In this document: in pieces, positions 1 through 35,088 of the stretch
Layout: every line of letters starts with the position of its first letter
Numbering within the stretch: the first letter of the stretch is position 1
Source of the DNA: a virus
Lineage: Duplodnaviria; Heunggongvirae; Uroviricota; Caudoviricetes
Direction: 5' to 3' (one strand)
IMG/VR virus record: IMGVR_UViG_2724679140_000013
DNA length: 37,432 nt
Position numbers and translations under genes: made by a program
Notes under the pieces: generated by a model
Told to the model about the DNA's origin: nothing
The model's database searches: none
What the model saw: only the letters and a program-made list of their open reading frames with translations

Positions 1-1002
1 TTACCCTCTATTGTCAAAAGGGTTCAATTCAACAGCAGCCTCTAAATGACCTGGAGCAAAATGCGCATAACGCATAGTCATTTTTATATCGCTATGCCCC
101 AGTATTTTTTGCAACACAAGAATATTTCCGCCCCGCATCATAAAATGACTGGCAAACGTGTGACGTAGCACATGAGTTAATTGCCCATCAGGAAGCTCGA
201 TCTTCGCTCTCTTAATTGCAGCGTCAAAAGCCTCATAACATGGTGAAAATAGCGCTCCTCGTTTTTTAGGAAGCATAGCCTGCAATTGAGGTGAAATCGG
301 TACAGTGCGGTTCTTCTTTCCTTTAGTTTTGACAAATGTGATTCGACCGGGCAGTACTTGAGATTGTTTTAATCCTTCTGCTTCACTCCACCGAGCACCA
401 GTCGCAAGCCCAATACGAACAACAACCCCCAAATCTTTATTCCGTGACTCATCACACGCAATCAGAAGGCGTTCAATCTCATCTACATACAGAAACGCCA
501 GTTCCTTTTCTTCCTCACGAAACTTGCGAATACCAGTCAGGGGGTTTTCACCAGACCACTCTCCAAGGCGCTTCAGTTCGGCAAAAACAGCATGTAGATA
601 TGACTGCTCACGATTAACAGTTGCTTCACTAAGTTTCTTCTTCCCCTTTGGATTCCATTCACCTGATAATCGCCGCTCCCTGTAGGTGGCAAACATATTT
701 TTATCAAATTGAGAAGCAAACGGATCACCTAACCTAGAACAAATCGCCTCGAGTTTAGCCCTTCGCTCTTCACCGGAAGACAGTGTTTTACCGTACATAT
801 CAAACCAGCGAGCAACCAACTCGGAAAGGTGGGGGCCAGAATCATCCTGAAACTCGCTCCCCAAATTACTATTCATTAAACGGCGCTCATAAGAGAGCGC
901 CTCACCCTTAGTCGCAAACTGTTTACGAATACGCTTTCCCGATGCTCCATACGGGTAACACTCGCAAAGCCATTTACCAGTAGGTAGTCTTCGAACACTC
1001 AT
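1..1002 (-). CDS. int: tyrosine recombinase / phage integrase
   Basis: 333 aa; C-terminal catalytic region with HVLRHTFAS...LGHSDIKMTMRYAH (R-H-R-Y integrase signature); ATG at 1002, stop at 1-3. Confidence 0.9.
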   Translation of the reverse strand: MSVRRLPTGKWLCECYPYGASGKRIRKQFATKGEALSYERRLMNSNLGSEFQDDSGPHLSELVARWFDMYGKTLSSGEERRAKLEAICSRLGDPFASQFDKNMFATYRERRLSGEWNPKGKKKLSEATVNREQSYLHAVFAELKRLGEWSGENPLTGIRKFREEEKELAFLYVDEIERLLIACDESRNKDLGVVVRIGLATGARWSEAEGLKQSQVLPGRITFVKTKGKKNRTVPISPQLQAMLPKKRGALFSPCYEAFDAAIKRAKIELPDGQLTHVLRHTFASHFMMRGGNILVLQKILGHSDIKMTMRYAHFAPGHLEAAVELNPFDNRG

Positions 1003-4554: not shown

Positions 4555-4850
4555 GCGCCATCAACCACCAGGAATTACGCGAACTGGCGATTGACCTGCA
4601 ACGAATGGCAACGCATCAAAAATTACTGGCGTTTCGCGCAATGCTCTCGCCGTCTGCCGTGCTGGCACTGCTGGATGAGCTGGAGCACGCCAGAACCATG
4701 TCTCCAGCCATTCGCCTGGCGCTCCATCATGAAATCGCTGATTTCTGCGCTCCACTGGGTTCGCCTGGTGAACCAGAAACGCCGGAAGCAATGCAACGAG
4801 AGCTACTGCAACGCATCGACAAGGTTTTTGATTTCTTCCTTAACCAGTAA
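4551..4850 (+). CDS. hypothetical early protein
   Basis: 99 aa; translationally coupled to upstream gene. Confidence 0.5.
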   Translation: MSAINHQELRELAIDLQRMATHQKLLAFRAMLSPSAVLALLDELEHARTMSPAIRLALHHEIADFCAPLGSPGEPETPEAMQRELLQRIDKVFDFFLNQ

Positions 4851-5892: not shown

Positions 5893-6057
5893 TTAAACCC
5901 GGCCAGTGAAAATCGCTGGCCGGAGCAGTATCAGGATTTTTTAGTATGCCGTTCTCACAAAAAAACCGCTTGCCATGCCGCAATCAGTCAGGTTACATTT
6001 CCGCTGCACCTCATAAAACGGGTGCCGGGATTGGAACCCCGCAGACTAACAGAGCGC

Positions 6058-6080
6058 ACAACCGCGCCAGCGGTTTTTTT
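6058..6080 (+). terminator. putative intrinsic terminator within the SPFH-to-A noncoding stretch
   Basis: short GC hairpin accgc-gcca-gcggt followed by T7 run. Confidence 0.4.
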
Positions 6081-6259
6081 GTGCGTACCGTATCGCCACG
6101 TCTTTTTCGCGTCAAAATTATGGTGGGGCGTACAGGGCCAGCATCAGCTGGGCCGGGTCCTCTGTTAGCCGGTAGTTCCAACCCTGTACGTCTCACCACC
6201 CCGAGCTTGGAACCTCTGGATGGTGAGTTTTCAAAACTGACTAACAGAGAGGCCACACC

Positions 6260-6931: not shown

Positions 6932-9754
6932 ATGACGGCAGAGTACATCAGGGACTGGCAACAGCCGCGCCACGCAGTGGGACGTGAAGGAACGGGGATC
7001 CCCGTTCCTGAATCCGCGCTTTCCTCCTGGCTGGATGCCTACCGGGCAGAGAACGAGCGCCGCCAGGAAATGGCTGATGCGGCGTTCTCCGCCACGCCGC
7101 TGGGCAACCTGATTAATAAAAGCCTGGATGCACAGGAAAAACAGGACAAAACCATCACACTGGCAGGAGACGCCAGAAAACAGGTACGCGGTGCGGTGGA
7201 TGAAGCCATGGCCTCGCTGCGCCTGCTGCCGTCCTATCTGCGCGATCCGCTTATTCGCCACCTCTCCTTCCTGCGCAAAAAACAGGAAGCCGATCGCCGG
7301 AAAGGCAAAAAGAGCTGGCAGGCTGAACGCTACGCGCGCGGAACCCTGCGCAAAATATTCGAACGTCTGGACCGCACCGACCACCGCTGGCTGACACCGG
7401 GTTATCGCTCCCTTGCCGGACGCGAACGCCTGGATGATTTGCTTTACCTGCCGCAGCTCAACAAGCACCAGATACAGACGCTGGCCACCATGACGGCGGC
7501 GATGTTCAGCAGCACCTTCGAAAAACTCTGCGATGGCTTTGGCGCGACTGATGGCGAGCTGACCATGGAGGTAACGCTGAAGGCGTATCAGATGCTGGCC
7601 CGCATGGCGTTACACCTGCACGCCATGCCTCCGCATTATGACGCACTGACAACAGACAAAGACCGGAGGAACGAACCGGACACGGAGTTGCTGCCGGGCG
7701 CAATCCTTCGCCTGACCTGTGCGGAATGGTGGAAACGCAAACTGTGGCTGTTACGTTGCGAGTGGCGGGAAGAACAACTCCGCGCCGCCTGTCTGGTTTC
7801 CAGAAAAACATCGCCCTATCTGAGCCAGGACGCGTTAAGCGAGTTTCGAGCACAGCGCGAGAAAACACGCGATTTCCTGAAAAGTTTCATGCTGGAAAAC
7901 GAAGACGGGTTCACGATTGATCTCGAGACGGTGTATTACGCGGGAGTAAGTAATCCGGTTCATCGTAAGGCAGAAATGATGGCCACCATGAAGGGGCTGG
8001 AACTTCTGGCCGAAGCCCGTGGCGACAAAGCGGTGTTTCTGACTGTCACCTGCCCGTCAAAATACCACGCCACAACAGAGAACGGTCATCCGAATCCCAA
8101 ATGGAACGGGGCCACCATGCGCGACTCCAGCGATTACCTGGTTAACACGTTTTTTGCGGCGGTCCGCAAGAAACTGAACCGCGACGGCCTGCGCTGGTAT
8201 GGCATCCGCACGGTGGAGCCTCACCATGACGGCACCGTGCACTGGCATATGATGGTCTTTGCTCATCCGGAAGAAATCGACACCATTGTGTCCCACACCC
8301 GCGATATTGCCATTCAGGAAGATCGTCACGAGCTGGGTGATGATATTACCCCACGCTTTAAGGCGGAGTACGTCGACGGCTCAAAAGGCACACCGACCAG
8401 CTACATCGCCACCTACATCGGGAAAAACCTGGACAGCCGTGCCGTGGATGGCATCGACCCGAAAACGGGCAAGCCACGCGTTGACCACGAAACCGGAAAA
8501 TCAATGGCCGAGAGCGTGGAACGCGCCATCGGCTGGGCGCGCCTTCACCGGGTCCGCCAGTTCCAGTTCTTTGGTATCCCCTCCCGTCAGGTGTGGCGTG
8601 AACTGCGCCGCCTTGCCAGCCAGATGGCTCGCAACCCGGAAGGACCGCAACGGCTGAAGGATGACGCAATGGACGCGGTTCTTGCTTCCGCTGATGCCGG
8701 ATGTTTTGCCACCTACATAGAGAAACAGGGCGGCGTACTTGTTCCACGCAAGGACTACCTGATTCGCACCGCCTACGACCTCGCAGATGAGCTGAACGAT
8801 TACGGTGAACAGAGCGTACAGATTTACGGGATCTGGTCACCGCTCATCGGGGAGTCTTCCCGCGTATGCACGCATCCGGACAACTGGAAGCTGGTAAGAC
8901 GCAAACCGGAAGCGGAAGACAGCGCCCGCGAAAATGGTTTTGACCTTCAGGGCGGCCCTGCCGCCCCTTGGACTCGTGGCAATAACTGTCCCCGTATACA
9001 GGAAACGGGCAACAACGGGACAGAACAGCCGGAAGAACGGCCAGCACCGTGGCCGCAGCTTCCTGACGGCGTTGACGTGAATGAATGGATGCGCTCACTG
9101 AAACGGCACGAACACCGGGCGCTGATGCGTTCGCTGCGTGACAAACAGGCAAAAAACAGCAGTGATGAAATGCAGAACTGGACACAGAGCCGCAAACAGC
9201 CACAGCCTTTGCCTGATAACCACGAGTTACTCGCTAAAGAATGGCGGGAGTCTGCTGAATCTCTCGGCCTGCATATCGGTGAACAGCAGATGCAGCACCT
9301 GTTACGGGGCGGCAGTCTGTACGTTGACGGCAGCATCATTGCACCGCAGGGATTTGAAATTGTACGCAAACCGGATACCCGCCCGGACAGCCGAATCACG
9401 CAGCTCTGGCAGCGCCTGAGCCGTAACCACGGCGTAAGCAGCACGGAGATCCGCCATAACCCGGTCGCCAGCTATCTGGAACAGCTGGGGGCATCAGACC
9501 CCGAAGCCGCCGCACGCCTGGCATCCACACTTCAGCAAGACCAGAACACCATGAAAACACCCGTTACCGTGCTTTCTGACATGCTGCGCGCCATCCGCGA
9601 CGCAGAGCACGCACAGAGAATCAGTGAAACCACTGAACGCGCCCGCCGCAAAGCAGACCTGCTGCGGGGTGGCCTGACCAGTGGAAACAAAAAACAGACA
9701 GAAACGGGATTCACAAATCCCGTAAATGAGCAAAAAACGCGCCGCGATATATGA
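6932..9754 (+). CDS. A: rolling-circle replication initiator (P2 gpA family endonuclease)
   Basis: 940 aa; HUH-type motif EPHHDGTVHWHMMVFAHP and downstream tyrosine motif YIATYIGKN; last early gene as in P2; longer than P2 A (about 760 aa) through a C-terminal extension. Confidence 0.85.
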   Translation: MTAEYIRDWQQPRHAVGREGTGIPVPESALSSWLDAYRAENERRQEMADAAFSATPLGNLINKSLDAQEKQDKTITLAGDARKQVRGAVDEAMASLRLLPSYLRDPLIRHLSFLRKKQEADRRKGKKSWQAERYARGTLRKIFERLDRTDHRWLTPGYRSLAGRERLDDLLYLPQLNKHQIQTLATMTAAMFSSTFEKLCDGFGATDGELTMEVTLKAYQMLARMALHLHAMPPHYDALTTDKDRRNEPDTELLPGAILRLTCAEWWKRKLWLLRCEWREEQLRAACLVSRKTSPYLSQDALSEFRAQREKTRDFLKSFMLENEDGFTIDLETVYYAGVSNPVHRKAEMMATMKGLELLAEARGDKAVFLTVTCPSKYHATTENGHPNPKWNGATMRDSSDYLVNTFFAAVRKKLNRDGLRWYGIRTVEPHHDGTVHWHMMVFAHPEEIDTIVSHTRDIAIQEDRHELGDDITPRFKAEYVDGSKGTPTSYIATYIGKNLDSRAVDGIDPKTGKPRVDHETGKSMAESVERAIGWARLHRVRQFQFFGIPSRQVWRELRRLASQMARNPEGPQRLKDDAMDAVLASADAGCFATYIEKQGGVLVPRKDYLIRTAYDLADELNDYGEQSVQIYGIWSPLIGESSRVCTHPDNWKLVRRKPEAEDSARENGFDLQGGPAAPWTRGNNCPRIQETGNNGTEQPEERPAPWPQLPDGVDVNEWMRSLKRHEHRALMRSLRDKQAKNSSDEMQNWTQSRKQPQPLPDNHELLAKEWRESAESLGLHIGEQQMQHLLRGGSLYVDGSIIAPQGFEIVRKPDTRPDSRITQLWQRLSRNHGVSSTEIRHNPVASYLEQLGASDPEAAARLASTLQQDQNTMKTPVTVLSDMLRAIRDAEHAQRISETTERARRKADLLRGGLTSGNKKQTETGFTNPVNEQKTRRDI

Positions 9755-9830: not shown

Positions 9831-10790
9831 ATGAAAATTTGTATCGATGACGGCTCCACCAACATCAAGCTGGCATGGACTGAGAACGGCGAACGCCGCA
9901 ACGCCATCAGCCCGAACAGCTTCAAGTCGGAATGGTCTGCGCCGTTCGGTGGAACGCAGCCCGCAAACTACATGCTTGATGGCGTGCGCTATGGTTTTGA
10001 TCCGGTCAGCGATCGCTTTGTCCAGACGACCGACACGCAATACCAGTACAGCGATGTGAATGTCATTGCCATTCATCACGCGCTGGTCAAATCAGGCATC
10101 ACACCACAGGAAGTGGATGTGGTTGTCACCCTGCCACTGAGCGAATATTTCGACACCAACGCACAGCCGGACATGGCCAACATCAACCGCAAAAAAGCAA
10201 ACGTCATGCGCCCGGTGGCGTACCAGAACGGAAAAGCATTCACTATCCGTAACGTACGGGTTATGCCTGAATCCATTCCGGCTGGTTTTAAAGCACTGGC
10301 TGACATGAGTCCGTTTGAATCCCTGCTGATTGTGGATTTAGGCGGAACCACGCTGGATGTGGCAAAGGTTCAGGGACAACTGGCAGGTATCAGCCAGGTG
10401 TTTTGCGATCCACACGTAGGCGTTTCCCTGATGGCCGATGCCGTACTGTCGGTGATGGCCACTAACGGTATGCGTACCAGTCACCACATCGCCAATACCA
10501 TTATCGAACATCGCCATGATGAAGCCTGGCTGCGCCAGCACATCCACAATGACGCGCATTACGCCAGCCTGATGGCGGTTATTCGTGAAAAGGAAGAAAC
10601 ACTGAAACAACGCGTGATCCGCGCGCTGGCGGGTTTTTCGGGTTACGGGCGGGTGATGGTTGTCGGTGGAGGGGCGGAGATTGTGGCACCCGCTATCCGC
10701 GAAGCCTGCGGAGTTAATGCGACTTTCATCGCGGACGGGGTGCCACAGTTTGCTCTGGTTAACGGGCTGTACGCAATGGACAAGGAGTAA
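9831..10790 (+). CDS. parM: ParM/StbA-type actin-like partition ATPase
   Basis: 319 aa; N-terminus MKICIDDGSTNIKLAW and motifs YSDVNVIAIHHAL, IVDLGGTTLD, VMVVGGGAEI closely resemble plasmid R1 ParM as I recall it. Confidence 0.85.
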   Translation: MKICIDDGSTNIKLAWTENGERRNAISPNSFKSEWSAPFGGTQPANYMLDGVRYGFDPVSDRFVQTTDTQYQYSDVNVIAIHHALVKSGITPQEVDVVVTLPLSEYFDTNAQPDMANINRKKANVMRPVAYQNGKAFTIRNVRVMPESIPAGFKALADMSPFESLLIVDLGGTTLDVAKVQGQLAGISQVFCDPHVGVSLMADAVLSVMATNGMRTSHHIANTIIEHRHDEAWLRQHIHNDAHYASLMAVIREKEETLKQRVIRALAGFSGYGRVMVVGGGAEIVAPAIREACGVNATFIADGVPQFALVNGLYAMDKE

Positions 10791-10794
10791 ACCA

Positions 10795-11109
10795 ATGACG
10801 ACACCAACCAGACGGATAAGTTTCTATCTGAAGCCAGCTGCAGTCAAGAGTGAACGGGAAGCGTGTAATTATCTCGACAGCCTGCCAGCCTCCGAACGCA
10901 GCCGCGCGCAACGCGCGGCATTTCTGGCTGGACTGGCACTCATTAAAAACGATCCTGCCTTTGCTTACTGGCTGGCTGAATGGTCAGAGGGGGAAAATAT
11001 GCCTGCCAACAATCACATATGGGGCTGGCATAACAGCGAGCCTGTTGGTTGCAAAAATCAGAATATAAGTCAAATAAAAAAGAATATTCAGGAATTTTTT
11101 CCTGAATGA
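10795..11109 (+). CDS. parR: ParR-like partition adaptor/repressor
   Basis: 104 aa from ATG at 10795 (AGGAG SD 7 nt upstream); RRISFYLKP...LDSLPASERSRAQRAAFLAGLALIKNDP resembles R1 ParR N-terminal RHH region; directly downstream of parM. Confidence 0.75.
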   Translation: MTTPTRRISFYLKPAAVKSEREACNYLDSLPASERSRAQRAAFLAGLALIKNDPAFAYWLAEWSEGENMPANNHIWGWHNSEPVGCKNQNISQIKKNIQEFFPE

Positions 11110-11467: not shown

Positions 11468-11785
11468 TTATGCAACCTGACAGGAATGTTCTGCCGTCGC
11501 AGTAACAACCCCACCGGAATACCCAAACTTAAAATCCCACCCCAGGATGTTTAGCATGATAAACAGTCGATCAATGGTATGATTATCTAACTTACCATTA
11601 ATGATTTCGCTTACTCTTGGTTGGGTTGTTTCCAGCAATTCAGCAGCTTCTCGCTGGGTAAGACCGCGCTCCTGAATCATTTTTCGGATAATAACCATTA
11701 ATTGGGCCCGGATGTGTTTATCACTAGCTTCATTTACAGAGCTACTTGATGACGCATAAGGGTTTTTGACTACGACGAATTCCAT
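11468..11785 (-). CDS. HTH (XRE-type) antitoxin, HigA-like
   Basis: 105 aa; HTH GLTQREAAELLETTQPRVSEIINGK; directly downstream of the toxin gene. Confidence 0.75.
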   Translation of the reverse strand: MEFVVVKNPYASSSSSVNEASDKHIRAQLMVIIRKMIQERGLTQREAAELLETTQPRVSEIINGKLDNHTIDRLFIMLNILGWDFKFGYSGGVVTATAEHSCQVA

Positions 11786-11855
11786 AACTCTCCAGCCTTA
11801 ATCAGCGATGTTGCTGACATTGATTATGTTATATCAGATTTGAGATACCTGCAAG

Positions 11856-12257
11856 CTATCTTAAGCCATTTTTACGACGATACTCCACTAATTGTTTGTA
11901 TCTTGCGGCAGCTGTCTCATATTCTTTTTTTGACACACCATTTGTCTTTTTCTTAAATGTATGAAGTATGTAAACAGACTCCGCAAATTTCGCAACGTAA
12001 ATCATACGATAAGAATCACTACTCTTGATGGTTAATTGCATTGCGTAGCGACCAATCGTTTCCCGCATTGATTTTTTTTGAGCAGGTGGAACCCCCAAGG
12101 CATCATCACCATCCACTGGAAAATCGAAACTGTCGAAAGAATGAGGACAATCGCTCTGCAGTGCAACAAGCTCAAAATTTATCCTTTCTCGAACAGCTTC
12201 AGGATAACTATCAATTTGTTTCTGAATTTTATCATTCCAATATGTGATGTCTTTCAC
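11856..12257 (-). CDS. RelE/HigB-superfamily toxin (Gp49-like)
   Basis: 133 aa; C-terminal signature YRMIYVAKFAESVYILHTFKKKTNGVSKKEYETAAARYK typical of Gp49/HigB-like toxins; GTG start with GAGAGG SD. Confidence 0.75.
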   Translation of the reverse strand: MKDITYWNDKIQKQIDSYPEAVRERINFELVALQSDCPHSFDSFDFPVDGDDALGVPPAQKKSMRETIGRYAMQLTIKSSDSYRMIYVAKFAESVYILHTFKKKTNGVSKKEYETAAARYKQLVEYRRKNGLR

Positions 12258-12349
12258 TCAGAACCTCTCACCAACGTAACCGAACGAAATTATACAAAGA
12301 TCTTTTTTTCGCTTAAATACATCCACTGAACGTTGATTTTAATGCAAGA

Positions 12350-12369
12350 TTGTGCACAAATTTGCACAA
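12350..12369. promoter_or_regulatory. candidate operator of TA operon
   Basis: ttgtgcacaaatttgcacaa: TGCACAA repeated at 10-bp spacing with partial dyad symmetry, about 95 bp upstream of toxin start. Confidence 0.4.
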
Positions 12370-12867
12370 TTTTTTTGAACGACTTTTTGCCCTTCCGGCC
12401 CGCGTGGCGGCTGGATCCGCCAAGGATCCGTGCGTGCACAAAAAAACGCGTTTTTTCTGCGCGCAGGTGACGGGGGAACAGCCCGCGTTTCAGGGGGTAA
12501 ATAGCATTCCCTGAACGATGTCGCAGCGACACAACAGAATGGCTGTATCGCTCACGCTGAGCGTGAAAAATACGTAAGGGGTTCTGATTTGATGGGGTGA
12601 AAGGTAAGGCCGTCAAATCGCAATGAGACGGCGAGAACATGCTGTCAGCTCGATGGGATTGCGTAAGAGTCTGGCCATCGATGATGGCGATAAGTTGGAA
12701 GACGTCGTGAAATTATCTGATTGATACGGGAGCTGGAGAGTCGGGGCATAAATTTTTTATGCCCCGGCGAAGCAGCAGACAAGCGAAGCGCGTCAGTGAT
12801 GCGGCACCTTGCCGACCACACTCCATAAGTGCAAAATACGAGCAAAGAAATCAATGGAGGCTGTTTT

Positions 12868-13392
12868 ATGGTCATTAATTACAAGCAGTTACGAGAAAAA
12901 CGAGAGCAGGTAAAGGAAAGTTTTCGCCGCAATGAAGATCTGACCCCGCTTGTACACCTTGCCCAGGGAATTGTTGATGCTTATGAAATCTCTCTGGAGC
13001 TGCCATCACAGACATGGACGGATAGCGACGGTAATCGCCAGCATTACGTTTCATGCGGACTGGAAACAACTGAAGGGTTTCGCAGAATGCCTTTATCTCA
13101 GATTCCTGCCGCTACCCCCAAAGCAAGGGGCGGCAATGATGAGCGAAAACTGATTTTTAGCATTGAGACAGTGGTTGACGACACACCTGGCGAAGTCGCG
13201 TTCGTGCATACTCCTCTTTCGATCGCAATGTATAACGATGAAATACAGGTTCGCGTTAATAATAATATCGTGCCACTTAAAGAAGGTAATTCACCCTACA
13301 CCACCGTTTGTGAAGCCATTCAATATTACGTTCTCTCTGAAATTGATAATCTCAAGCCTGACGGCACCCAGAAAATGGTTCAACTCTGGTAA
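12868..13392 (+). CDS. hypothetical protein, accessory gene next to portal
   Basis: 174 aa from ATG at 12868 with GGAGG SD 7 nt upstream; followed by intrinsic terminator; no family recognised. Confidence 0.55.
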   Translation: MVINYKQLREKREQVKESFRRNEDLTPLVHLAQGIVDAYEISLELPSQTWTDSDGNRQHYVSCGLETTEGFRRMPLSQIPAATPKARGGNDERKLIFSIETVVDDTPGEVAFVHTPLSIAMYNDEIQVRVNNNIVPLKEGNSPYTTVCEAIQYYVLSEIDNLKPDGTQKMVQLW

Positions 13393-13397
13393 TAAGG

Positions 13398-13425
13398 ACA
13401 GCCCCATCACGGGGCTGTTTTTTCA
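13398..13425 (+). terminator. intrinsic terminator
   Basis: hairpin cagcccc-atcac-ggggctg followed by T6; overlaps last codons of portal gene on opposite strand. Confidence 0.55.
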
Positions 13426-14453
13426 TCAAGAAGTGCATAAGAGTTAAAACGGATCACCTCTTCGCCAAGCCAGTCATTGATGTGCTTCATGGCCTCCATG
13501 ACGGGCATCAGCTCGTTAATTGCGTAAACCCGCGCGGCCTTCTCCACATCACCAAACGCACTTTTTTCACCCGGCATCGCCCCCATCAGTTGCGGCGGAA
13601 CGCGGTGCGCAGCCAGCACATCATCACGGGATGCCGCCTTAACATTCATGAACTCATCCTTTGCGGTGATCTGCTGGAACGGCAAAATTTGCACCCCCTC
13701 TTTGCCCCCGTTGGGCGCATGAATGAGCACGTTTTTAAACGCACCACCACCACGTGCCCCCTGTAGCGTTTCTTTCAGGGAGTCCATGCTTTCGCGGTTT
13801 ACCTGCGCTGCACCGATGTAGATGATGCACCCGGCGTGGGATCCGTTGTCGTAATACAGTTTTCTGAACATGTCCGCCGAATGAGACAGGCTGGCCGAGA
13901 GTAATGCGCCAAGATATTCCGGCATGCCGTAAATTTCCTGGTTAATGTCAGGATTCATCAGGTGGCACACTTTACCAGGGCGAAACTGAAACGCATCCTT
14001 GCCATCCTGCACATACCACCATGATTCAAGATCGCTTCCGCGTCGCATGTATTTCGCCAGGGCGTGCCGTAATTTAAGCGGTTCGCCGAGCATATTGCTC
14101 CGAAGCTCAAGGAATGCGTTACCGAACACAAACCAGTCCAGCGCCAGCGCCGAGAAATCCTGCCGGGAAAGCAGCGGGTGCGGAATGTAGCAACCGAGCA
14201 ATACATTACGCTTAAAGTAAAGCGCAGACTGATGCCAGGACGTTTGCCGGGCAGCTCTTGCCAGACCGTACCAGTCCACCGGGGTTTCATACCACCGCCC
14301 GTTATCAGCACAGTACATGTTGTCCAGCAGGTCATGCCCGGTCAGGCGATAAGGACCATCAAATGTGAATGCACTGAGCGATGATTCTTTCCTGAGCGCA
14401 TCAGCGAGATCAATGCGTGAACTCATGCGCACTTTTTTATTTTTTCTGCTCAT
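13407..14453 (-). CDS. Q: portal protein (P2 gpQ family)
   Basis: 348 aa; length and sequence character match P2 Q; immediately downstream of terminase gene with overlapping stop/start. Confidence 0.9.
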   Translation of the reverse strand: MSRKNKKVRMSSRIDLADALRKESSLSAFTFDGPYRLTGHDLLDNMYCADNGRWYETPVDWYGLARAARQTSWHQSALYFKRNVLLGCYIPHPLLSRQDFSALALDWFVFGNAFLELRSNMLGEPLKLRHALAKYMRRGSDLESWWYVQDGKDAFQFRPGKVCHLMNPDINQEIYGMPEYLGALLSASLSHSADMFRKLYYDNGSHAGCIIYIGAAQVNRESMDSLKETLQGARGGGAFKNVLIHAPNGGKEGVQILPFQQITAKDEFMNVKAASRDDVLAAHRVPPQLMGAMPGEKSAFGDVEKAARVYAINELMPVMEAMKHINDWLGEEVIRFNSYALLDEKTAP

Positions 14454-16204
14454 CAGAACTCCATAACCGTGAAACGCTCGTTTTCTCCTTCGCCGCCAAT
14501 CGGTTCGTTAATGACAGCAAGCATGGTTGCCCACGCAAGGTCGCCGTGGCTGATCCCCCTCGCGCGGTCCGTTTCGTAAGTGATAAAGCCGCCCGGTGTT
14601 TTCACCTTACGCACGGCGTTAAAGGCCGCGACCAGCTCGCGTTCGGCGCGATCGTATTCCCACCGCCCGGCACGCATTATTTGCAGCATTTTCAGTACCA
14701 GCGACCGTTTTGATGACAGCGTGAAGGTGTACGGAATAGCAGCAGGGAAAAACCGTTTCACTATCTGATAAACAGCCTCCCCGTTCCCGCCCGTCACATC
14801 AATGCCGATGTGTTCCACGTTGTAGCGACACGTGAACTCTTCAATGACTCTGGCCTGTTCTTCAAACTCCAGCCCCTGAACGCGTCGCGTCTCCACCGTT
14901 CGAAAACGGCCTCCAGGAACAGCCGGAGGAACCACTACGGACACAGCGCCGCTGTCGCCGTTTCCACTGCTGCCGTTTGCGTCATACCCAATCCATACCG
15001 GACGATTCCCCATCGGGCGGGGAGCAAAAGGTTTCCAGTCTTTCCAGTCGTCGTATCCGTCAACACCGCAGCCAATCAGTATATTCAGGTTAAATGCCGA
15101 TTCCCCTTCGCGGACAAACTCACACATATAGAGATTGCGGAACTCGTCTTCGGTGTTTTCATCACGAATTTCGTCAATATCGGTGTGTTTCCAGCCGTGA
15201 TTAACCACATCTTCCAGCGTGACAATTTGCCGCCACGTCCGGTCAGGGCAGATAAGCCCGTTATGCAGCGTTTTCCAGTCCACAGAAAAACGCTGACGTT
15301 TATGCGTGGCCTTTTTCTCGTTCCAGCGGTCGCCGTTCCAGTAGGCGTATGCCTCGTGCGTTTCGGTGGATGGCGTGGAGAAGTAGGTGCGCCGCAGTCC
15401 GCTGAGGGTTGCCATAGCGCCAGCCACCTTGCGCAGTTCAGCAAAGCGACTGACCCAGAAAAATTCATCAAAATAAAAATTGCCCGTGTAGGACTGTGCC
15501 GTCGCAGCAGAAGTACCAAGAAAATGCAGCTCTGCGCCGTTGGAGAGGATGATTTTATCGCCCCCTTTCAGCTCCACATCAACTTCAGATGCAGCCTTCT
15601 GAATAATGCTTTTAAACTGGAACGCCTGACGACGCGACGCAGACAAAAAAATCTGGTTACGCTGGTAAGGTTGCGCCACATCGTCACGCAGCGCCATCAG
15701 CAGTGCTTCCTGTGCAAAATACCAGGTCGCCCCAATCTGTCGGGATTTCAGGATCATCCTGTTACGTATCCCGGCTTCACTGCAAAGGGTCAGGGAGTCA
15801 AACCAGCCCCGCTGATGCCACTCCAGCCTGCTGATGATTTTTTCCCGCAGTGCGGCAATCTGCTCCGGCGTGAAATGATTTTTAAGTTTTTTCGCCCGGC
15901 CTTTCTTTCCTGTGGCCGTCACATCCGGCTGGCCATCATGCAGTTTTTTAAGCTGCCGGGTCAGCAGGTCTATTTCCTTAAAGTCACCGCCTGTTTTATT
16001 CTGTTTTTCAGTAAGCTGGATGAGGCGCGCATCGATGGACTGCGTGACACGCTGCACGGGTGGCGTTTCATCCCACTGGTCGCGTTTTTTCCACGCATAA
16101 ATCGTGTTCGGGTTTATTCCCATCAGACGTGATATTTCTGCGGGCGGATAACCCTGCCAGTAAAGTTGCCGCGCACGCTGGCGCACAAAAGCGTCCTGAA
16201 TCAT
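14453..16204 (-). CDS. P: terminase large (ATPase) subunit (P2 gpP family)
   Basis: 583 aa; divergent from O-N-M-L operon as in P2. Confidence 0.9.
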   Translation of the reverse strand: MIQDAFVRQRARQLYWQGYPPAEISRLMGINPNTIYAWKKRDQWDETPPVQRVTQSIDARLIQLTEKQNKTGGDFKEIDLLTRQLKKLHDGQPDVTATGKKGRAKKLKNHFTPEQIAALREKIISRLEWHQRGWFDSLTLCSEAGIRNRMILKSRQIGATWYFAQEALLMALRDDVAQPYQRNQIFLSASRRQAFQFKSIIQKAASEVDVELKGGDKIILSNGAELHFLGTSAATAQSYTGNFYFDEFFWVSRFAELRKVAGAMATLSGLRRTYFSTPSTETHEAYAYWNGDRWNEKKATHKRQRFSVDWKTLHNGLICPDRTWRQIVTLEDVVNHGWKHTDIDEIRDENTEDEFRNLYMCEFVREGESAFNLNILIGCGVDGYDDWKDWKPFAPRPMGNRPVWIGYDANGSSGNGDSGAVSVVVPPAVPGGRFRTVETRRVQGLEFEEQARVIEEFTCRYNVEHIGIDVTGGNGEAVYQIVKRFFPAAIPYTFTLSSKRSLVLKMLQIMRAGRWEYDRAERELVAAFNAVRKVKTPGGFITYETDRARGISHGDLAWATMLAVINEPIGGEGENERFTVMEF

Positions 16205-18316: not shown

Positions 18317-19117
18317 ATGATTACTCCTGCACAGCAACACTGGCAGAACGTGATGGCACAGCGCGCAGGCCGGGCGAATGAAGGCGTGGACCACGCCGCG
18401 CGTACCGCGCATGAAGAGGTGCTGTATCGTCTGCGTCTGGCACAGGCCCGGCTTAAGGGCGTACAGGCAAGAAGCGCGAAAGCCGCCATCAAAAAAGAGT
18501 TGTTGCCGGATTTTTCCGGCTGGATTGAGGGAACGCTGGAGGCTGACGGCGGGCAGCAGGACGAAGTGATTGCCACGCTGATGGTGTGGGCGATTGACTG
18601 CGGCGATCTTCCGCTTGCGCTGCGTATTGGTGCGTATGTGGTCCGTCACAACCTCATCATGCCGGATAACTTTGGCCGTACTGCTGCCACGGTACTGACC
18701 GAAGAAATCTGCAACCCGGTACTGACGCAGGCCGGGACGGATGCCGACGCGGATTTGTCCACCTTTATCGAACCACTGGACACACTTTGGGAAATTGTCG
18801 CCAACCAGGATATGCCGGACGAAGTGCGCGCCAAATTATGCAAGGCGTGCGCCTTTGCCCGTCGTGGTCTGACCGATGCAGACAACATGGCCTTATCACT
18901 GAAGCTGCTGCGCGAAGCGATGCACCTGAACCCGAACGCAGGTGTGAAACGCGAGATTGCAACCCTTTCCCGCGCCCTGAAAAAAGCCGATTCCGCAGCC
19001 GCACCAGAAGACGCCAGCGCACAGCAGACGCAGGACGAAAGCAGCAAAAGTAAAAAGACAACGCGGAAGCCTGCAACACGAAAAACCACCGCGACGCAGA
19101 AGGCGAAGCGCGGTTAA
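18317..19117 (+). CDS. M: terminase small/endonuclease subunit (P2 gpM family)
   Basis: 266 aa; conserved DMPDEVRAKL motif and basic C-terminal tail as in P2 M. Confidence 0.85.
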   Translation: MITPAQQHWQNVMAQRAGRANEGVDHAARTAHEEVLYRLRLAQARLKGVQARSAKAAIKKELLPDFSGWIEGTLEADGGQQDEVIATLMVWAIDCGDLPLALRIGAYVVRHNLIMPDNFGRTAATVLTEEICNPVLTQAGTDADADLSTFIEPLDTLWEIVANQDMPDEVRAKLCKACAFARRGLTDADNMALSLKLLREAMHLNPNAGVKREIATLSRALKKADSAAAPEDASAQQTQDESSKSKKTTRKPATRKTTATQKAKRG

Positions 19118-32322: not shown

Positions 32323-32479
32323 AGCTTCAGCCCCTTGTATCCGTTAAATGATTAGGCAACAATCATCACCCACCACGCGCGTAATCTCACCCCTGCGCCA
32401 TTCTCCCGCCACGGCGACAACAAAAAGCAGTAACCCCCTCCGCACGCACATGCGACCATGCCGCACAGGGAGGGAACAG
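32323..32479. promoter_or_regulatory. divergent intergenic region between FI (minus) and D (plus); expected late promoters
   Basis: 157-bp gap between divergently oriented late genes; no clear Ogr-type dyad recognised. Confidence 0.3.
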
Positions 32480-33589
32480 ATGACCGACACCACCATGCAA
32501 TTGCTCAGTCAGGGCACAGACCCTGTAAAAATGCCGGATTTTGATATTCTCGCGGAGGGTAAAACGCTGTCAGGCGTGGCAGAGCGCCTGATGAGCCTGT
32601 CACTGACCGACAACCGTGGATTTGAGGCGGACCAGCTCACCATCACGCTGGATGATGCGGATGGTCAGTTGCAGCTACCGCCACGGGGCGCGCGCCTGAC
32701 GGTTCTCATTGGCTGGAAAGGAGAACCGCTGACAGAAAAAGGCACTTACATTGTTGATGAAATCGCTCACGAAGGACCGCCGGACAGGCTGACTGTTTCA
32801 GCCAGAAGCGCAGATTTTCGGGATGAATTTAACGTTAAACGTGAGGTGTCCTGGCATGATGTGACCGTTGAGCGTGTGGTATCCGCCATCGCTCATCGGT
32901 ACGGTCTGAAACCACAAATCAGCGAAATACTGATGGATATTGAAATCGACCACGCCGACCAGACCGAAGAAAGCGACATGTCCTTCCTTACGCGCATGGC
33001 GGAAATGCTGGGCGCAATCACCACGGTAAAAAGCGGTAATCTGTTATTCATCATGCCTGGCGGTGGCGTGAACGCACAGGGCCAGCCGTTGCCCTCATTC
33101 GCCATCACACGCAGCAGTGGCGATCGCCATCAGTTCCGCATTGCTGACCGCGAAGCGTATACGGGGGTACGCGCTTACTGGCTTGATCTTAATTACGGGA
33201 AAAAGAAAAAAGTCAGCGTGAAACGCCGCAAACCGCCAAAACCCAAAAAGGAGAAAAGCAGCAGCCGTGAAGGTGATTATATGGAAGGCGCGGAAGGCAA
33301 TGTGTTTGTGTTACGCAAGACTTATCAGAACGAGCAGGCAGCAAGACGCGCAGCGGCGGCGAAGTGGCAGCAGCTACAACGCGGAGCCGCATCATTCTCC
33401 ATCACGCTGGCACGTGGACGAGCAGAACTCTACCCCGAAATGCATGGCACGGTAACAGGATTTAAAAGCGAGATTGATAATCAGGACTGGATTATTGCAA
33501 AAGCCGAGCACACCATTGATAACAGTGGTTTTACCACACAGCTTGAGCTTGAAGCAAAAATCCCGGAATGGATAGCAGAAACAGAGTGA
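32480..33589 (+). CDS. D: tail protein D (P2 gpD family, late control D)
   Basis: 369 aa from ATG at 32480 (GGGAGGG SD); typical gpD features including basic KKKKVSVKRRKPPKPKK patch. Confidence 0.85.
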   Translation: MTDTTMQLLSQGTDPVKMPDFDILAEGKTLSGVAERLMSLSLTDNRGFEADQLTITLDDADGQLQLPPRGARLTVLIGWKGEPLTEKGTYIVDEIAHEGPPDRLTVSARSADFRDEFNVKREVSWHDVTVERVVSAIAHRYGLKPQISEILMDIEIDHADQTEESDMSFLTRMAEMLGAITTVKSGNLLFIMPGGGVNAQGQPLPSFAITRSSGDRHQFRIADREAYTGVRAYWLDLNYGKKKKVSVKRRKPPKPKKEKSSSREGDYMEGAEGNVFVLRKTYQNEQAARRAAAAKWQQLQRGAASFSITLARGRAELYPEMHGTVTGFKSEIDNQDWIIAKAEHTIDNSGFTTQLELEAKIPEWIAETE

Positions 33590-33715: not shown

Positions 33716-34474
33716 ATGTTCAGTTTATTTTCGTTAACTGCCGGAGCAAATGTGCGCTGGCATGATTTACCTGGTAAAGGTATTCCTGTTGTTTTTATTC
33801 ATGGGCTTGGCTGTTCCTCTTCTTATGAATATCCACGGGTTGTTGCAGATCCTGCATTTGGTGGACAACGAGCGATATTGATAGATCTCCCTGGATATGG
33901 ATTCAGTGATAAGCCTAAAGGATTCGATTACAGCATATCCCATCAAGCTAAAGTTGTTATTGAAGTAGTAGAAACCTTAAATCTCTCACAGTTCCATATT
34001 TATGGTCACAGTATGGGGGGAAGTATTGCGATTGAAGTGGCCAGACAACTACATGAGAGAACAAGAAAGCTTGTGGTTTCTGAGCCTAATTTTCACTCTG
34101 GTGGAGGTACCTATAGCCGTAAGATAATAGAGAAACCAGAAGCAGAGTTTATTTCGCATATATATAATGAATTACTGGAGTGTGAAACATCCCCATGGAA
34201 AGGTGAACTCCAGAATGCAGCCCCATGGGCAATATGGCGAGGAGCCAAAAGTCTGGTTGATGGAACCACTCCATCATGGAGAGATATATTCCTTAATCTG
34301 CCCTGTTCACGTACACTAATTTTTGGCGAACAATCATTGCCAGACAATGATTTCCAGCAAATAAAAGAATCTGGAATATCTGTTGCAATAGTGCCAAACG
34401 CTGGACACTCCATGTCATGGGAAAATCCATCAGCACTGGCCTCAATTTTACATACAGAATTTTATAGAAAGTAA
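33716..34474 (+). CDS. alpha/beta-fold hydrolase (esterase/lipase-like), AT-rich cargo gene
   Basis: 252 aa; nucleophile elbow GHSMGG, N-terminal HGLG oxyanion-region motif; markedly lower GC than flanking phage genes. Confidence 0.8.
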   Translation: MFSLFSLTAGANVRWHDLPGKGIPVVFIHGLGCSSSYEYPRVVADPAFGGQRAILIDLPGYGFSDKPKGFDYSISHQAKVVIEVVETLNLSQFHIYGHSMGGSIAIEVARQLHERTRKLVVSEPNFHSGGGTYSRKIIEKPEAEFISHIYNELLECETSPWKGELQNAAPWAIWRGAKSLVDGTTPSWRDIFLNLPCSRTLIFGEQSLPDNDFQQIKESGISVAIVPNAGHSMSWENPSALASILHTEFYRK

Positions 34475-34827: not shown

Positions 34828-35088
34828 ATGTTTCGTTGTCCGCTTTGTGGCGCATCTGCCCGTATCCGCACCAGTCGTCCGGAAAATGATTCAAACACCG
34901 TGCGGCAAAAGTATTACCAGTGTAACAACCTGGAATGCGGCGTATGCTTCTCAACACTGGAAGCTTTCCATAAATTCACATCAAAACACGCCTCCGGCGT
35001 TCACTCTTCAGAAGGTATCCCGTGGCATGAGCTGCCAGCTTCACACAGGGGAAACAATCAGATGAGTTTGCCTTTACCTCAGAATTAA
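34828..35088 (+). CDS. ogr: Ogr/Delta-type zinc-finger late transcription activator
   Basis: 86 aa; MFRCPLCGASARIRTSR ... YYQCNNLECGVCF (CxxC...CxxC) closely resembles P2 Ogr; AAGGGAGG SD. Confidence 0.85.
   Translation: MFRCPLCGASARIRTSRPENDSNTVRQKYYQCNNLECGVCFSTLEAFHKFTSKHASGVHSSEGIPWHELPASHRGNNQMSLPLPQN

Follow-up and report, generated by a model that had tools for sequence, protein, structure and literature searches.

The DNA analyzed here (hereafter the window; 37,432 nt, IMG/VR record IMGVR_UViG_2724679140_000013) is, from position 1 to approximately 35,000, a P88-like (Xuanwuvirus-type) prophage of the P2 family. It runs from an integrase gene at one end, through gpA, the cargo genes, and the portal and terminase genes, to gpD and an Ogr homologue towards the other end (Table 1). 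It is a prophage of Escherichia coli, and the element itself is of an ordinary kind. Its terminase, portal, and capsid genes have homologues in P2 and 186, but at a considerable distance: identity to the P2 proteins is 36% for the terminase small subunit (TerS), 44% for the large subunit (TerL), and about 45% for the portal. In tblastn searches against phages, the portal was 100% identical to that of vB_EcoM-569R5 and 45–47% identical to P2-type portals. The scaffold and capsid genes lie between the genes for TerL, the enzyme expected to cut cos, and TerS, its expected recognizer. The gpA–gpQ interval is a published cos-adjacent accessory hotspot (PMC9122126). Its last cargo in the window is a toxin/antitoxin-like pair (11468–12257), which adjoins the left edge of the putative cos described below, and sequence likeness to relatives begins only at approximately 12331–12352.

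Three other regions of the prophage carry genes or RNAs of separate interest. Directly after gpA, at 9831–11109, are genes for ParM (StbA_N/ParM) and a Plasmid_stab_B (ParM/StbB-like) protein; finding an actin-type plasmid partition system here hints that a P2-like prophage may pass through a plasmid-like stage or be stabilized in this way. Upstream of gpA, Rfam matches at gathering score to isrK (6006–6080, plus strand) and C4 antisense RNA (6116–6203, plus strand) suggest that this P2-family prophage has an antisense immunity module of the P1/P7 type. An alpha/beta-hydrolase gene (33716–34474), flanked by gpD and the Ogr homologue, probably represents cargo at a further prophage hotspot.

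Table 1. Coordinates of the prophage genes and of the putative cos region in the window
Feature	Position	Strand	Basis or remark
Integrase	1-1002	-	One end of the prophage
gpA	6932-9754		
HTH antitoxin-like gene, 105 aa	11468-11785	-	Pfam HTH_37, 8e-19
Gp49/HigB-like toxin, 133 aa	11856-12257	-	Pfam Gp49, 3e-13
Putative cos block	12352-12508	+	Sole DNA common to the window and satellite L245; conserved island in the 29-locus alignment
Left arm, TGCACAA repeats then T7-GA	12350-12378	+	Near-invariant in phages and satellites
TGCACAAAAAAA box	12435-12446	+	Invariant in alignments A1 and A2; positional counterpart of P2 TGCATTAAAA
Putative cos core, GCGCGCA-GGTGACGGGGGAACAGCCC-GCG	12459-12487	+	Only segment recovered by BLAST in distant phages
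Variable noncoding spacer	12509-12741		Polymorphic without codon periodicity, 1-nt indels; absent from the satellite; no Rfam match at E<=1
Hairpin, 11-bp stem	12742-12766		Conserved in the E. coli P88 group
Cargo ORF, 177 aa	12859-13392	+	PHROG 5091 match; no Pfam or PADLOC match
Portal gene (P2 Q homologue)	13407-14453	-	tblastn against phages
Terminase large subunit (P2 P homologue)	14453-16204	-	44% identity to P2 gpP over 593 aa
Terminase small subunit (P2 M homologue)	18317-19117	+	Pfam Phage_term_smal, 1e-36; 36% identity to P2 gpM
gpD	32348-33589		Towards the other end of the prophage
Ogr homologue	~34831-34995		

The initial annotation had delimited 12371–12867 as a GC-rich, structured noncoding stretch of about 500 bp and had proposed it as a candidate cos or packaging region. 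The stretch has a GC content of 52.1%, close to the 51.6% of the window in full, and so is not GC-rich overall; the GC-rich part is confined to 12390–12500 (64%). The statement that it contains no credible ORF was borne out. Polymorphic sites counted by codon position in 60 distinct relatives (25, 20, and 24; 13, 13, and 17; 15, 13, and 15) show no three-base periodicity, frameshifting 1-nt indels occur among these aligned relatives, and the antisense ORFs have no match in Pfam, PADLOC, or PHROG. The window itself lacks one base after 12614 (A3 rather than A4) that is present in 59 of the 60 aligned sequences, at a site in the spacer, outside the cos block. A match to a known noncoding RNA, which the initial annotation held would speak against its proposal, was sought in Rfam over 12250–12900, and nothing was found either at gathering score or at E ≤ 1.

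The structural elements described are all present in the sequence. The perfect 16-bp palindrome AAAAAACGCGTTTTTT (A6CGCGT6) is present, at 12441–12456 rather than at about 12443–12460, and there are two GGATCCG repeats (12413–12419 and 12424–12430, 11 bp apart). Both the palindrome and the repeats occur only within the E. coli P88 group, other sequence standing in their place in the satellite and other phage groups, and the palindrome folds no better than shuffled sequences. The middle of the block was also searched for a conserved dyad or hairpin, and this idea was rejected, as the best inverted repeats were 3–6 bp long, lay in differing places, and had p values of 0.06–1.0 against shuffles. 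The hairpin in the right part of the stretch has the 11-bp stem and 3-nt loop ascribed to it, and lies 12 nt further left than annotated (12742–12766, not 12754–12778). Its predicted stability is −22 to −29 kcal/mol (z −5.3 to −7.7), and its single polymorphic site is in the loop. In relatives it stands approximately 25–30 nt past the portal stop codon, like tQ of P2; tQ and tW of 186 are annotated at the equivalent place, just after the portal stop. By its position, the hairpin is a possible terminator of the portal–terminase operon; no T-run follows the strong stem on either strand, and a terminator scan for it was empty.

Between the hairpin and the portal gene of the window, an insertion of approximately 0.6 kb (12806–13410) bears the 177-aa cargo ORF and replaces the last three portal codons. 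It is found in 396 complete E. coli genomes, the ORF is missing from most relatives, and it is not part of cos. The insertion sits on the portal side of cos and thus outside the published gpA–cos hotspot; approximately a third of P88-type prophages have cargo on this side as well. We propose that the part of the annotated interval beyond the cos block consists of a variable spacer and a terminator-like hairpin left from the end of the portal operon.

The segment 12343–12801 is 90–93% identical to phage P88 and other Xuanwuvirus/P88-like phages, and was found in about a fifth of the complete E. coli genomes searched (1139 of 5426). P88 and PhiSM, both of which carry the cos block, are active phages (PMC5285337, PMC6456863). 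An alignment of 29 diverse phage and satellite loci reduces the conserved part to a block of approximately 157 bp (12352–12508), which begins 19 bp before the annotated start and is much shorter than the 500 bp first delimited. From left to right, the window has TGCACAA repeats, T7GA, a variable GC-rich segment, the box TGCACAAAAAAA, 19 nt, and the core. The TGCACAA copies overlap (12350–12356 on the minus strand, 12353–12359 and 12363–12369 on the plus strand), and four of the five copies in the 37-kb window are clustered within the 92 bp of 12350–12441. These repeats are candidate binding sites for TerS; TGCAT repeats occupy the place of the TGCACAA arm in P2, 186, and P4. The TGCACAAAAAAA box stands 19–21 nt before the G-rich core in the aligned loci, and the corresponding interval in P2 and 186 is 18–19 nt. 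A common block composed of TGCACAA repeats, a T-run, TGCACAAAAA, about 20 nt, GCGCGCA, and a G-rich core lies beside the portal gene in divergent P2-like prophages of Enterobacterales.

The core of the window is located between the toxin–antitoxin cargo pair and the portal gene, and this setting is widely retained. A scan of IMG/VR viral contigs with the core pattern yielded 120 loci, in which the invariance of the core is partly by construction, since they were retrieved by that pattern. In approximately 100 of them a portal gene (67–100% identity) lies on the opposite strand, 172–330 nt to the right of the core; the few loci without a portal gene are chance matches in unrelated genes or contigs that end too soon. 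The same arrangement is shared by 17 of 23 genome loci from other Enterobacterales, to which the same reservation on core invariance applies, and these 17 genomes and the approximately 100 contigs together span portal identities of 63–100% at distances of 172–330 nt. The core-to-portal distance is 922–927 nt in the window and about ten contigs, and 322 nt in relatives without the insertion; the 922 nt of the window is due to the 0.6-kb cargo insertion.

Conservation was also seen in searches that did not use the core pattern, in which BLAST aligned only part of the block in otherwise diverged phages. A BLAST search of E. coli genomes with 12330–12560 recovered a diverged P2-like prophage in strain AMSCJX04 (portal 72% identical), which is alignable only over 12434–12504 and whose core, GGTGACGGGGGGAAAGCCC, matches the P2 end at 15 of 19 positions. 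In a search against phages, only 12461–12487 matched Enterobacter phage phiT5282H, again between cargo genes and the portal gene. Two Klebsiella phages were fetched solely through their portal proteins (67–68% identity), independently of any motif. Both Kp4845-1 and Kp4878-3 contain a G-rich core preceded by GCGCGCA, approximately 250–300 nt from the portal stop, and the former (portal 67%) reads GCGCGCA/GGTGACGGGGGGCAAGCCC.

The strongest argument that the block is a packaging signal comes from an element with which the window has nothing else in common. The 8.7-kb element L245 (E. coli GCA_012251525.1, 1–8700) has neither portal nor terminase genes, and a blastn comparison with the whole window gave a single hit, 12352–12508, with 79.7% identity over 158 columns. 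Since these otherwise unrelated replicons share only 157 bp of noncoding DNA, and one of them has no packaging genes, the shared block is best explained as a packaging signal. The genes of L245 are ordered as Toprim primase, integrase, iteron field, cos, Ogr/Delta, a 236-aa coiled-coil protein, and a capsid homologue, followed by a PemK toxin–antitoxin pair and then the host hpt/can genes; its cos reads CTGCACAAAAGTGCACAAATTTGCACAATTTTTTAGAG...GTGCGTGCACAAAAAACGGTGAGTTTTTCGCGCGCA-GGTGACGGGGGAACAGCAC-GCGTTTCAGGGGGTAAAT. The element is carried by 57 complete E. coli genomes, and approximately 400 others match only its cos block.

Syntenic elements containing the block were found in Izhakiella, Apirhabdus, Erwinia dacicola, Kluyvera, and Enterobacter, and the family members identified are L245, L238, L228, L222, L221, L232, and L235. 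Six of the 23 loci from other Enterobacterales have the full left arm and core, no portal gene, and a common, different right flank. To the right of cos, Izhakiella and Apirhabdus have an Ogr/Delta gene and then ORFs of 71 aa, of 264 aa (a protein with no family assignment), and of 432–468 aa; the C-terminal 300 residues of the last are a P2-family capsid domain. The capsid homologue of the satellites carries an N-terminal extension of 120–170 aa, and a 764-sequence cluster contains its E. coli homologues. A prophage with this core (L240, L227) is present as well in the genomes of Izhakiella and Enterobacter hormaechei B17-3. Two loci bear Firmicutes labels: a contig of Vagococcus sp. WN89Y (L226) has an E. 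coli-type P88 cos and a 98% identical portal, and a 'Bacillota' MAG (L235) carries an enterobacterial satellite. Both labels probably reflect contamination or mis-binning.

These elements resemble P4-like satellites in being small and integrative, in having no portal or terminase genes, and in carrying the cos of a helper beside an Ogr/Delta-type activator gene, and the sharing between L245 and the window resembles the relationship between P4 and P2. However, the shared block is approximately 157 bp in the P88 type and its satellite, as compared with 55 bp in P2 and P4. Unlike P4, the P88-cos elements have no homologues of Sid, Psu, or P4-alpha, and their products include a P2-family capsid homologue with an extended N terminus and a coiled-coil protein of 236–264 aa. 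Apart from the Ogr/Delta zinc finger, L245 is unrelated to P4. The P88-cos elements look like an undescribed type of satellite, and our literature search found no paper on such a family. P4-like satellites were also considered as carriers of the P88-type cos and rejected: 74 of the 80 retrieved have a readable 19-mer, all of the P2/186 type and none of the P88 type.

The cohesive ends of P2, 186, and P4 are 19-nt 5' extensions (GGCGAGGCGGGGAAAGCAC / GGCGTGGCGGGGAAAGCAT), and P2 and P4 share a 55-bp homology (Ziermann and Calendar 1990, as cited in PMC9122126 and PMC3931495). In this 55-bp homology, the left edge is TGCATTAAAA, followed by a GC hairpin of 18–19 nt, the 19-mer, and (T/C)GCGCGC, with TGCAT repeats further upstream; the heptamer (T/C)GCGCGC is the last conserved element in the 74 P4-like satellites. 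The annotation of P2 and 186 agrees with the initial placement of the P2 cos, which lies between the accessory genes (old/tin in P2, tum/orf97 in 186) and the portal gene, with the cohesive end 167–176 nt from the portal stop. The initial annotation had further pointed to a resemblance between the 19-mer GGTGACGGGGGAACAGCCC and the P2-family ends. The 19-mer is indeed present at 12466–12484 and matches the P2 end at 13 of 19 positions without gaps, but this likeness alone is no better than chance. In a Hamming scan, the P2 19-mer was found with at most six mismatches at 12 sites in the window, compared with an expectation of 8.1 from shuffled sequence, and a closer match than GGTGACGGGGGAACAGCCC is found at two other sites. 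A relation of the core to the 19-nt consensus GGCG(A/T)GGCGGGGAAAGCA(C/T) is suggested by its common register with Kp4878-3 and SEN5 and by the AMSCJX04 variant, whose core has 15 of the 19 positions of the P2 end. Alignment to known P2/186 cos regions, which had been suggested as a check, was carried out with an nhmmer profile of ten P2/186/P4-type cos regions and gave no hit at 12466–12484. The combined pattern TGCAYWAAAA-N15-25-GGYGANNNGGGG was likewise without hits, the P88 core being 2 nt shorter. As the likeness of the 19-mer is by itself at chance level, the case for cos must rest on comparative evidence.

The architecture of the site provides such evidence. As in P2, 186, and P4, an accessory hotspot is followed by cos and then by the portal gene on the opposite strand, and TGCA-type repeats precede TGCA(T/C)(T/A)AAAA, 18–21 nt, and a G-rich core with GCGSGC-type boxes. 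As in P2 and P4, the block common to the satellite ends a few nucleotides past the core. Nevertheless, the window differs from the P2/186/P4 type in several respects: the core matches at only 13 of 19 positions in a register 2 nt shorter, its GCGCGC box is 5' and not 3' of the G-rich run, and its spacer is A/T-rich rather than a GC hairpin (CCGCCCCG..CGGGCG). The (T/C)GCGCGC heptamer is absent 3' of the core, where GCGTTTC follows, and GCGCGCA stands immediately 5'. Kp4878-3 (Reginaelenavirus; portal 68%) combines the two types. Its left arm is of the P88 type (GTGCACAAATTTGCAC...), and it reads GCGCGCA/GGCGAGGCGGGGGAGCAAG/CGCGCGC in the same register as the window; its 19-mer resembles the start of the Salmonella phage SEN5 record, GGCGAGGCGGGGGAACGAG/CGCGCGC, and SEN5 shares CGGGGGAAC with the window. 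Both SEN5 and Kp4878-3 differ from the window, which has GGTGACGGGGGAACAGCCC and then GCG, in having a P2-like 19-mer and a 3' CGCGCGC box. As judged by alignment A2, Kp4878-3 is a bridge between the P88-type and P2-type cos in one register, and the proposed homology of the core to the P2-type end is supported by the architecture and by this bridging sequence. In function, the predicted site is also comparable to cos of lambda, where a nicking site with partial twofold symmetry lies beside repeated binding sites of the small subunit. There is, however, no sequence or gene homology to lambda, and whereas cosB of lambda is on the side packaged first, the conserved arm here, as in P2 and P4, is on the other side of the core.

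Taken together, the position, architecture, conservation, and satellite sharing of the block support the proposal of a packaging region and make it highly probable that 12352–12508 is the cohesive-end packaging site (cos) of this P88-like prophage. It would be a cos of a known kind in a version of sequence so far undescribed; our literature search found no paper giving the cos or the ends of P88-type phages, nor the core sequence in that context. The core appears to have been correctly chosen at or around GGTGACGGGGGAACAGCCC, and is the probable site of two staggered nicks. Replication as circles would precede packaging, and the terminase would then recognize the left arm, comprising the TGCACAA repeats, the T-run, and the TGCACAAAAA box, and introduce two staggered nicks into the G-rich core GCGCGCA/GGTGACGGGGGAAC(AGCCC)/GCG. 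From these comparisons we infer a left nick at 12464–12466 and a right nick at 12479–12484. They can be placed only within these limits because of the 5' GCGCGC box, the A/T-rich spacer, and the 2-nt shift in the alignment. The product would be linear virion DNA with 5' single-stranded cohesive ends of approximately 14–19 nt, and we somewhat favor a location of these ends within 12464–12484. By analogy with P2, the 'left' end would be the one facing the portal gene, and the small integrative elements with the same block would presumably be packaged by the P88-like terminase. The records of P88-type phages are prophage-ordered or permuted, and no end-mapped genome of the P88 type was found among them.

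One of these permuted records bears on where the block is cut. The virion-derived record LR595891 (Escherichia virus P88_4B11) begins at window position 12388, 78 nt upstream of the core, and ends at 12387, and a start so near cos is unlikely to be an arbitrary choice. In a sister record, LR595869.1 (Escherichia virus P2_2H4), the first 30 nt begin with a Nextera adapter remnant (CGTGGGCTCGGAGATGTGTATAAGAGACAG) and the record ends with CTGTCTCTTA (last 10 nt). The genome break thus falls after position 9 and before position 10 of the P2 cohesive end, a break inside the P2 19-mer that implies adapter contamination at physical ends and, hence, that the ends of records in this series can reflect physical ends. 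It is therefore conceivable, though improbable, that the block is correctly identified and the cut lies elsewhere in it, near 12388 or in CGCGTGGCGGCTGGATCCG (12401–12419), which matches the 186 end at 11 of 19 positions and has GCGTGGCGG in common with it. However, the P88_4B11 record has no adapter remnant, and 12384–12432 is only moderately conserved and largely replaced in the satellite and other phage groups, whereas 12458–12503 is almost unchanged. The cohesive ends of P2, 186, and P4 are at the right edge of their shared block, as is the G-rich core here, which favors the core over the upstream candidate; moreover, the P2-type 19-mer of Kp4878-3 is exactly at the G-rich position. Some anomalies affect the core itself. 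At the place of window 12474–12486, phage Chuche lacks 7 nt (GGGAACA) and P88_4B11 lacks 5 nt (CCCGC), in both cases in or at the edge of the core, and prophage 503458 has one G fewer. These deletions could be variants that are tolerated or could stem from assembly errors at DNA ends; should they be genuine, the core would accommodate changes that might not be expected of a nicking site. In another contig (IMGVR_UViG_2681813261_000011, motif at 12834–12851, minus strand), different DNA, GGTAATGACTCCAACTTATTGATAGTG..., abuts CA/GGTGACGGGGG. This flank is apparently a terminal repeat of IS1; if so, an insertion sequence has landed precisely at the core in a P88-like prophage. Contig ends were considered as possible virion ends and rejected, as this flank was read as an IS1 end and the other ends near the motif as draft-assembly breaks.

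Functions other than packaging were also weighed. The stretch could be an intergenic regulatory or terminator region only, with the packaging site elsewhere or with headful packaging. The strong hairpin just past the portal end of relatives, a promoter-like site for the toxin gene (12253–12226, minus strand), and the best, albeit weak, hit of the P2-type cos profile, which fell elsewhere (4622–4653, E = 0.03), would all fit such a reading. It is nonetheless very improbable: a regulatory region would not be the sole sequence common to an unrelated small element with different neighbors, the promoter and terminator scans were at chance level, and the profile hit is a 14-nt match inside an early-region ORF, taken as chance. 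In addition, TerS and TerL of the window are of the P2 family by Pfam assignment and by identity to gpP, respectively; to our knowledge, P2-family terminases are cos enzymes in every studied member (P2, 186, and PhiCTX). More improbable still is that the product of the conserved block is a small RNA or protein, even though the region is conserved and annotators of related phages have called short hypothetical ORFs in it. These ORFs differ in frame and strand between records, and such a role is also opposed by the empty Rfam and protein-family searches, the lack of codon periodicity, the frameshifting indels, and mid-region inverted repeats that are no better than those of shuffles.

Read as cos, the block shows where the genome of a very common type of E. 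coli prophage naturally ends, and it fixes the boundary of the cos-adjacent defense and cargo hotspot. A cassette of 157 bp should render plasmids transducible by P88-like phages. The block further brought to light a family of small elements that encode a capsid protein and apparently depend on the P88-type cos. Because this cos differs from that of the P2/186/P4 type and is carried by none of the 80 P4-like satellites, it predicts which helpers mobilize which satellites. We suggest tentatively, and with somewhat more doubt than confidence, that the P88-type cos defines a second packaging-specificity group among the P2-family phages of E. coli, with its own family of capsid-bearing satellites distinct from P4. 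If this is true, P2/186-type and P88-type helpers, each with their satellites, would constitute two separate piracy networks in one host species.
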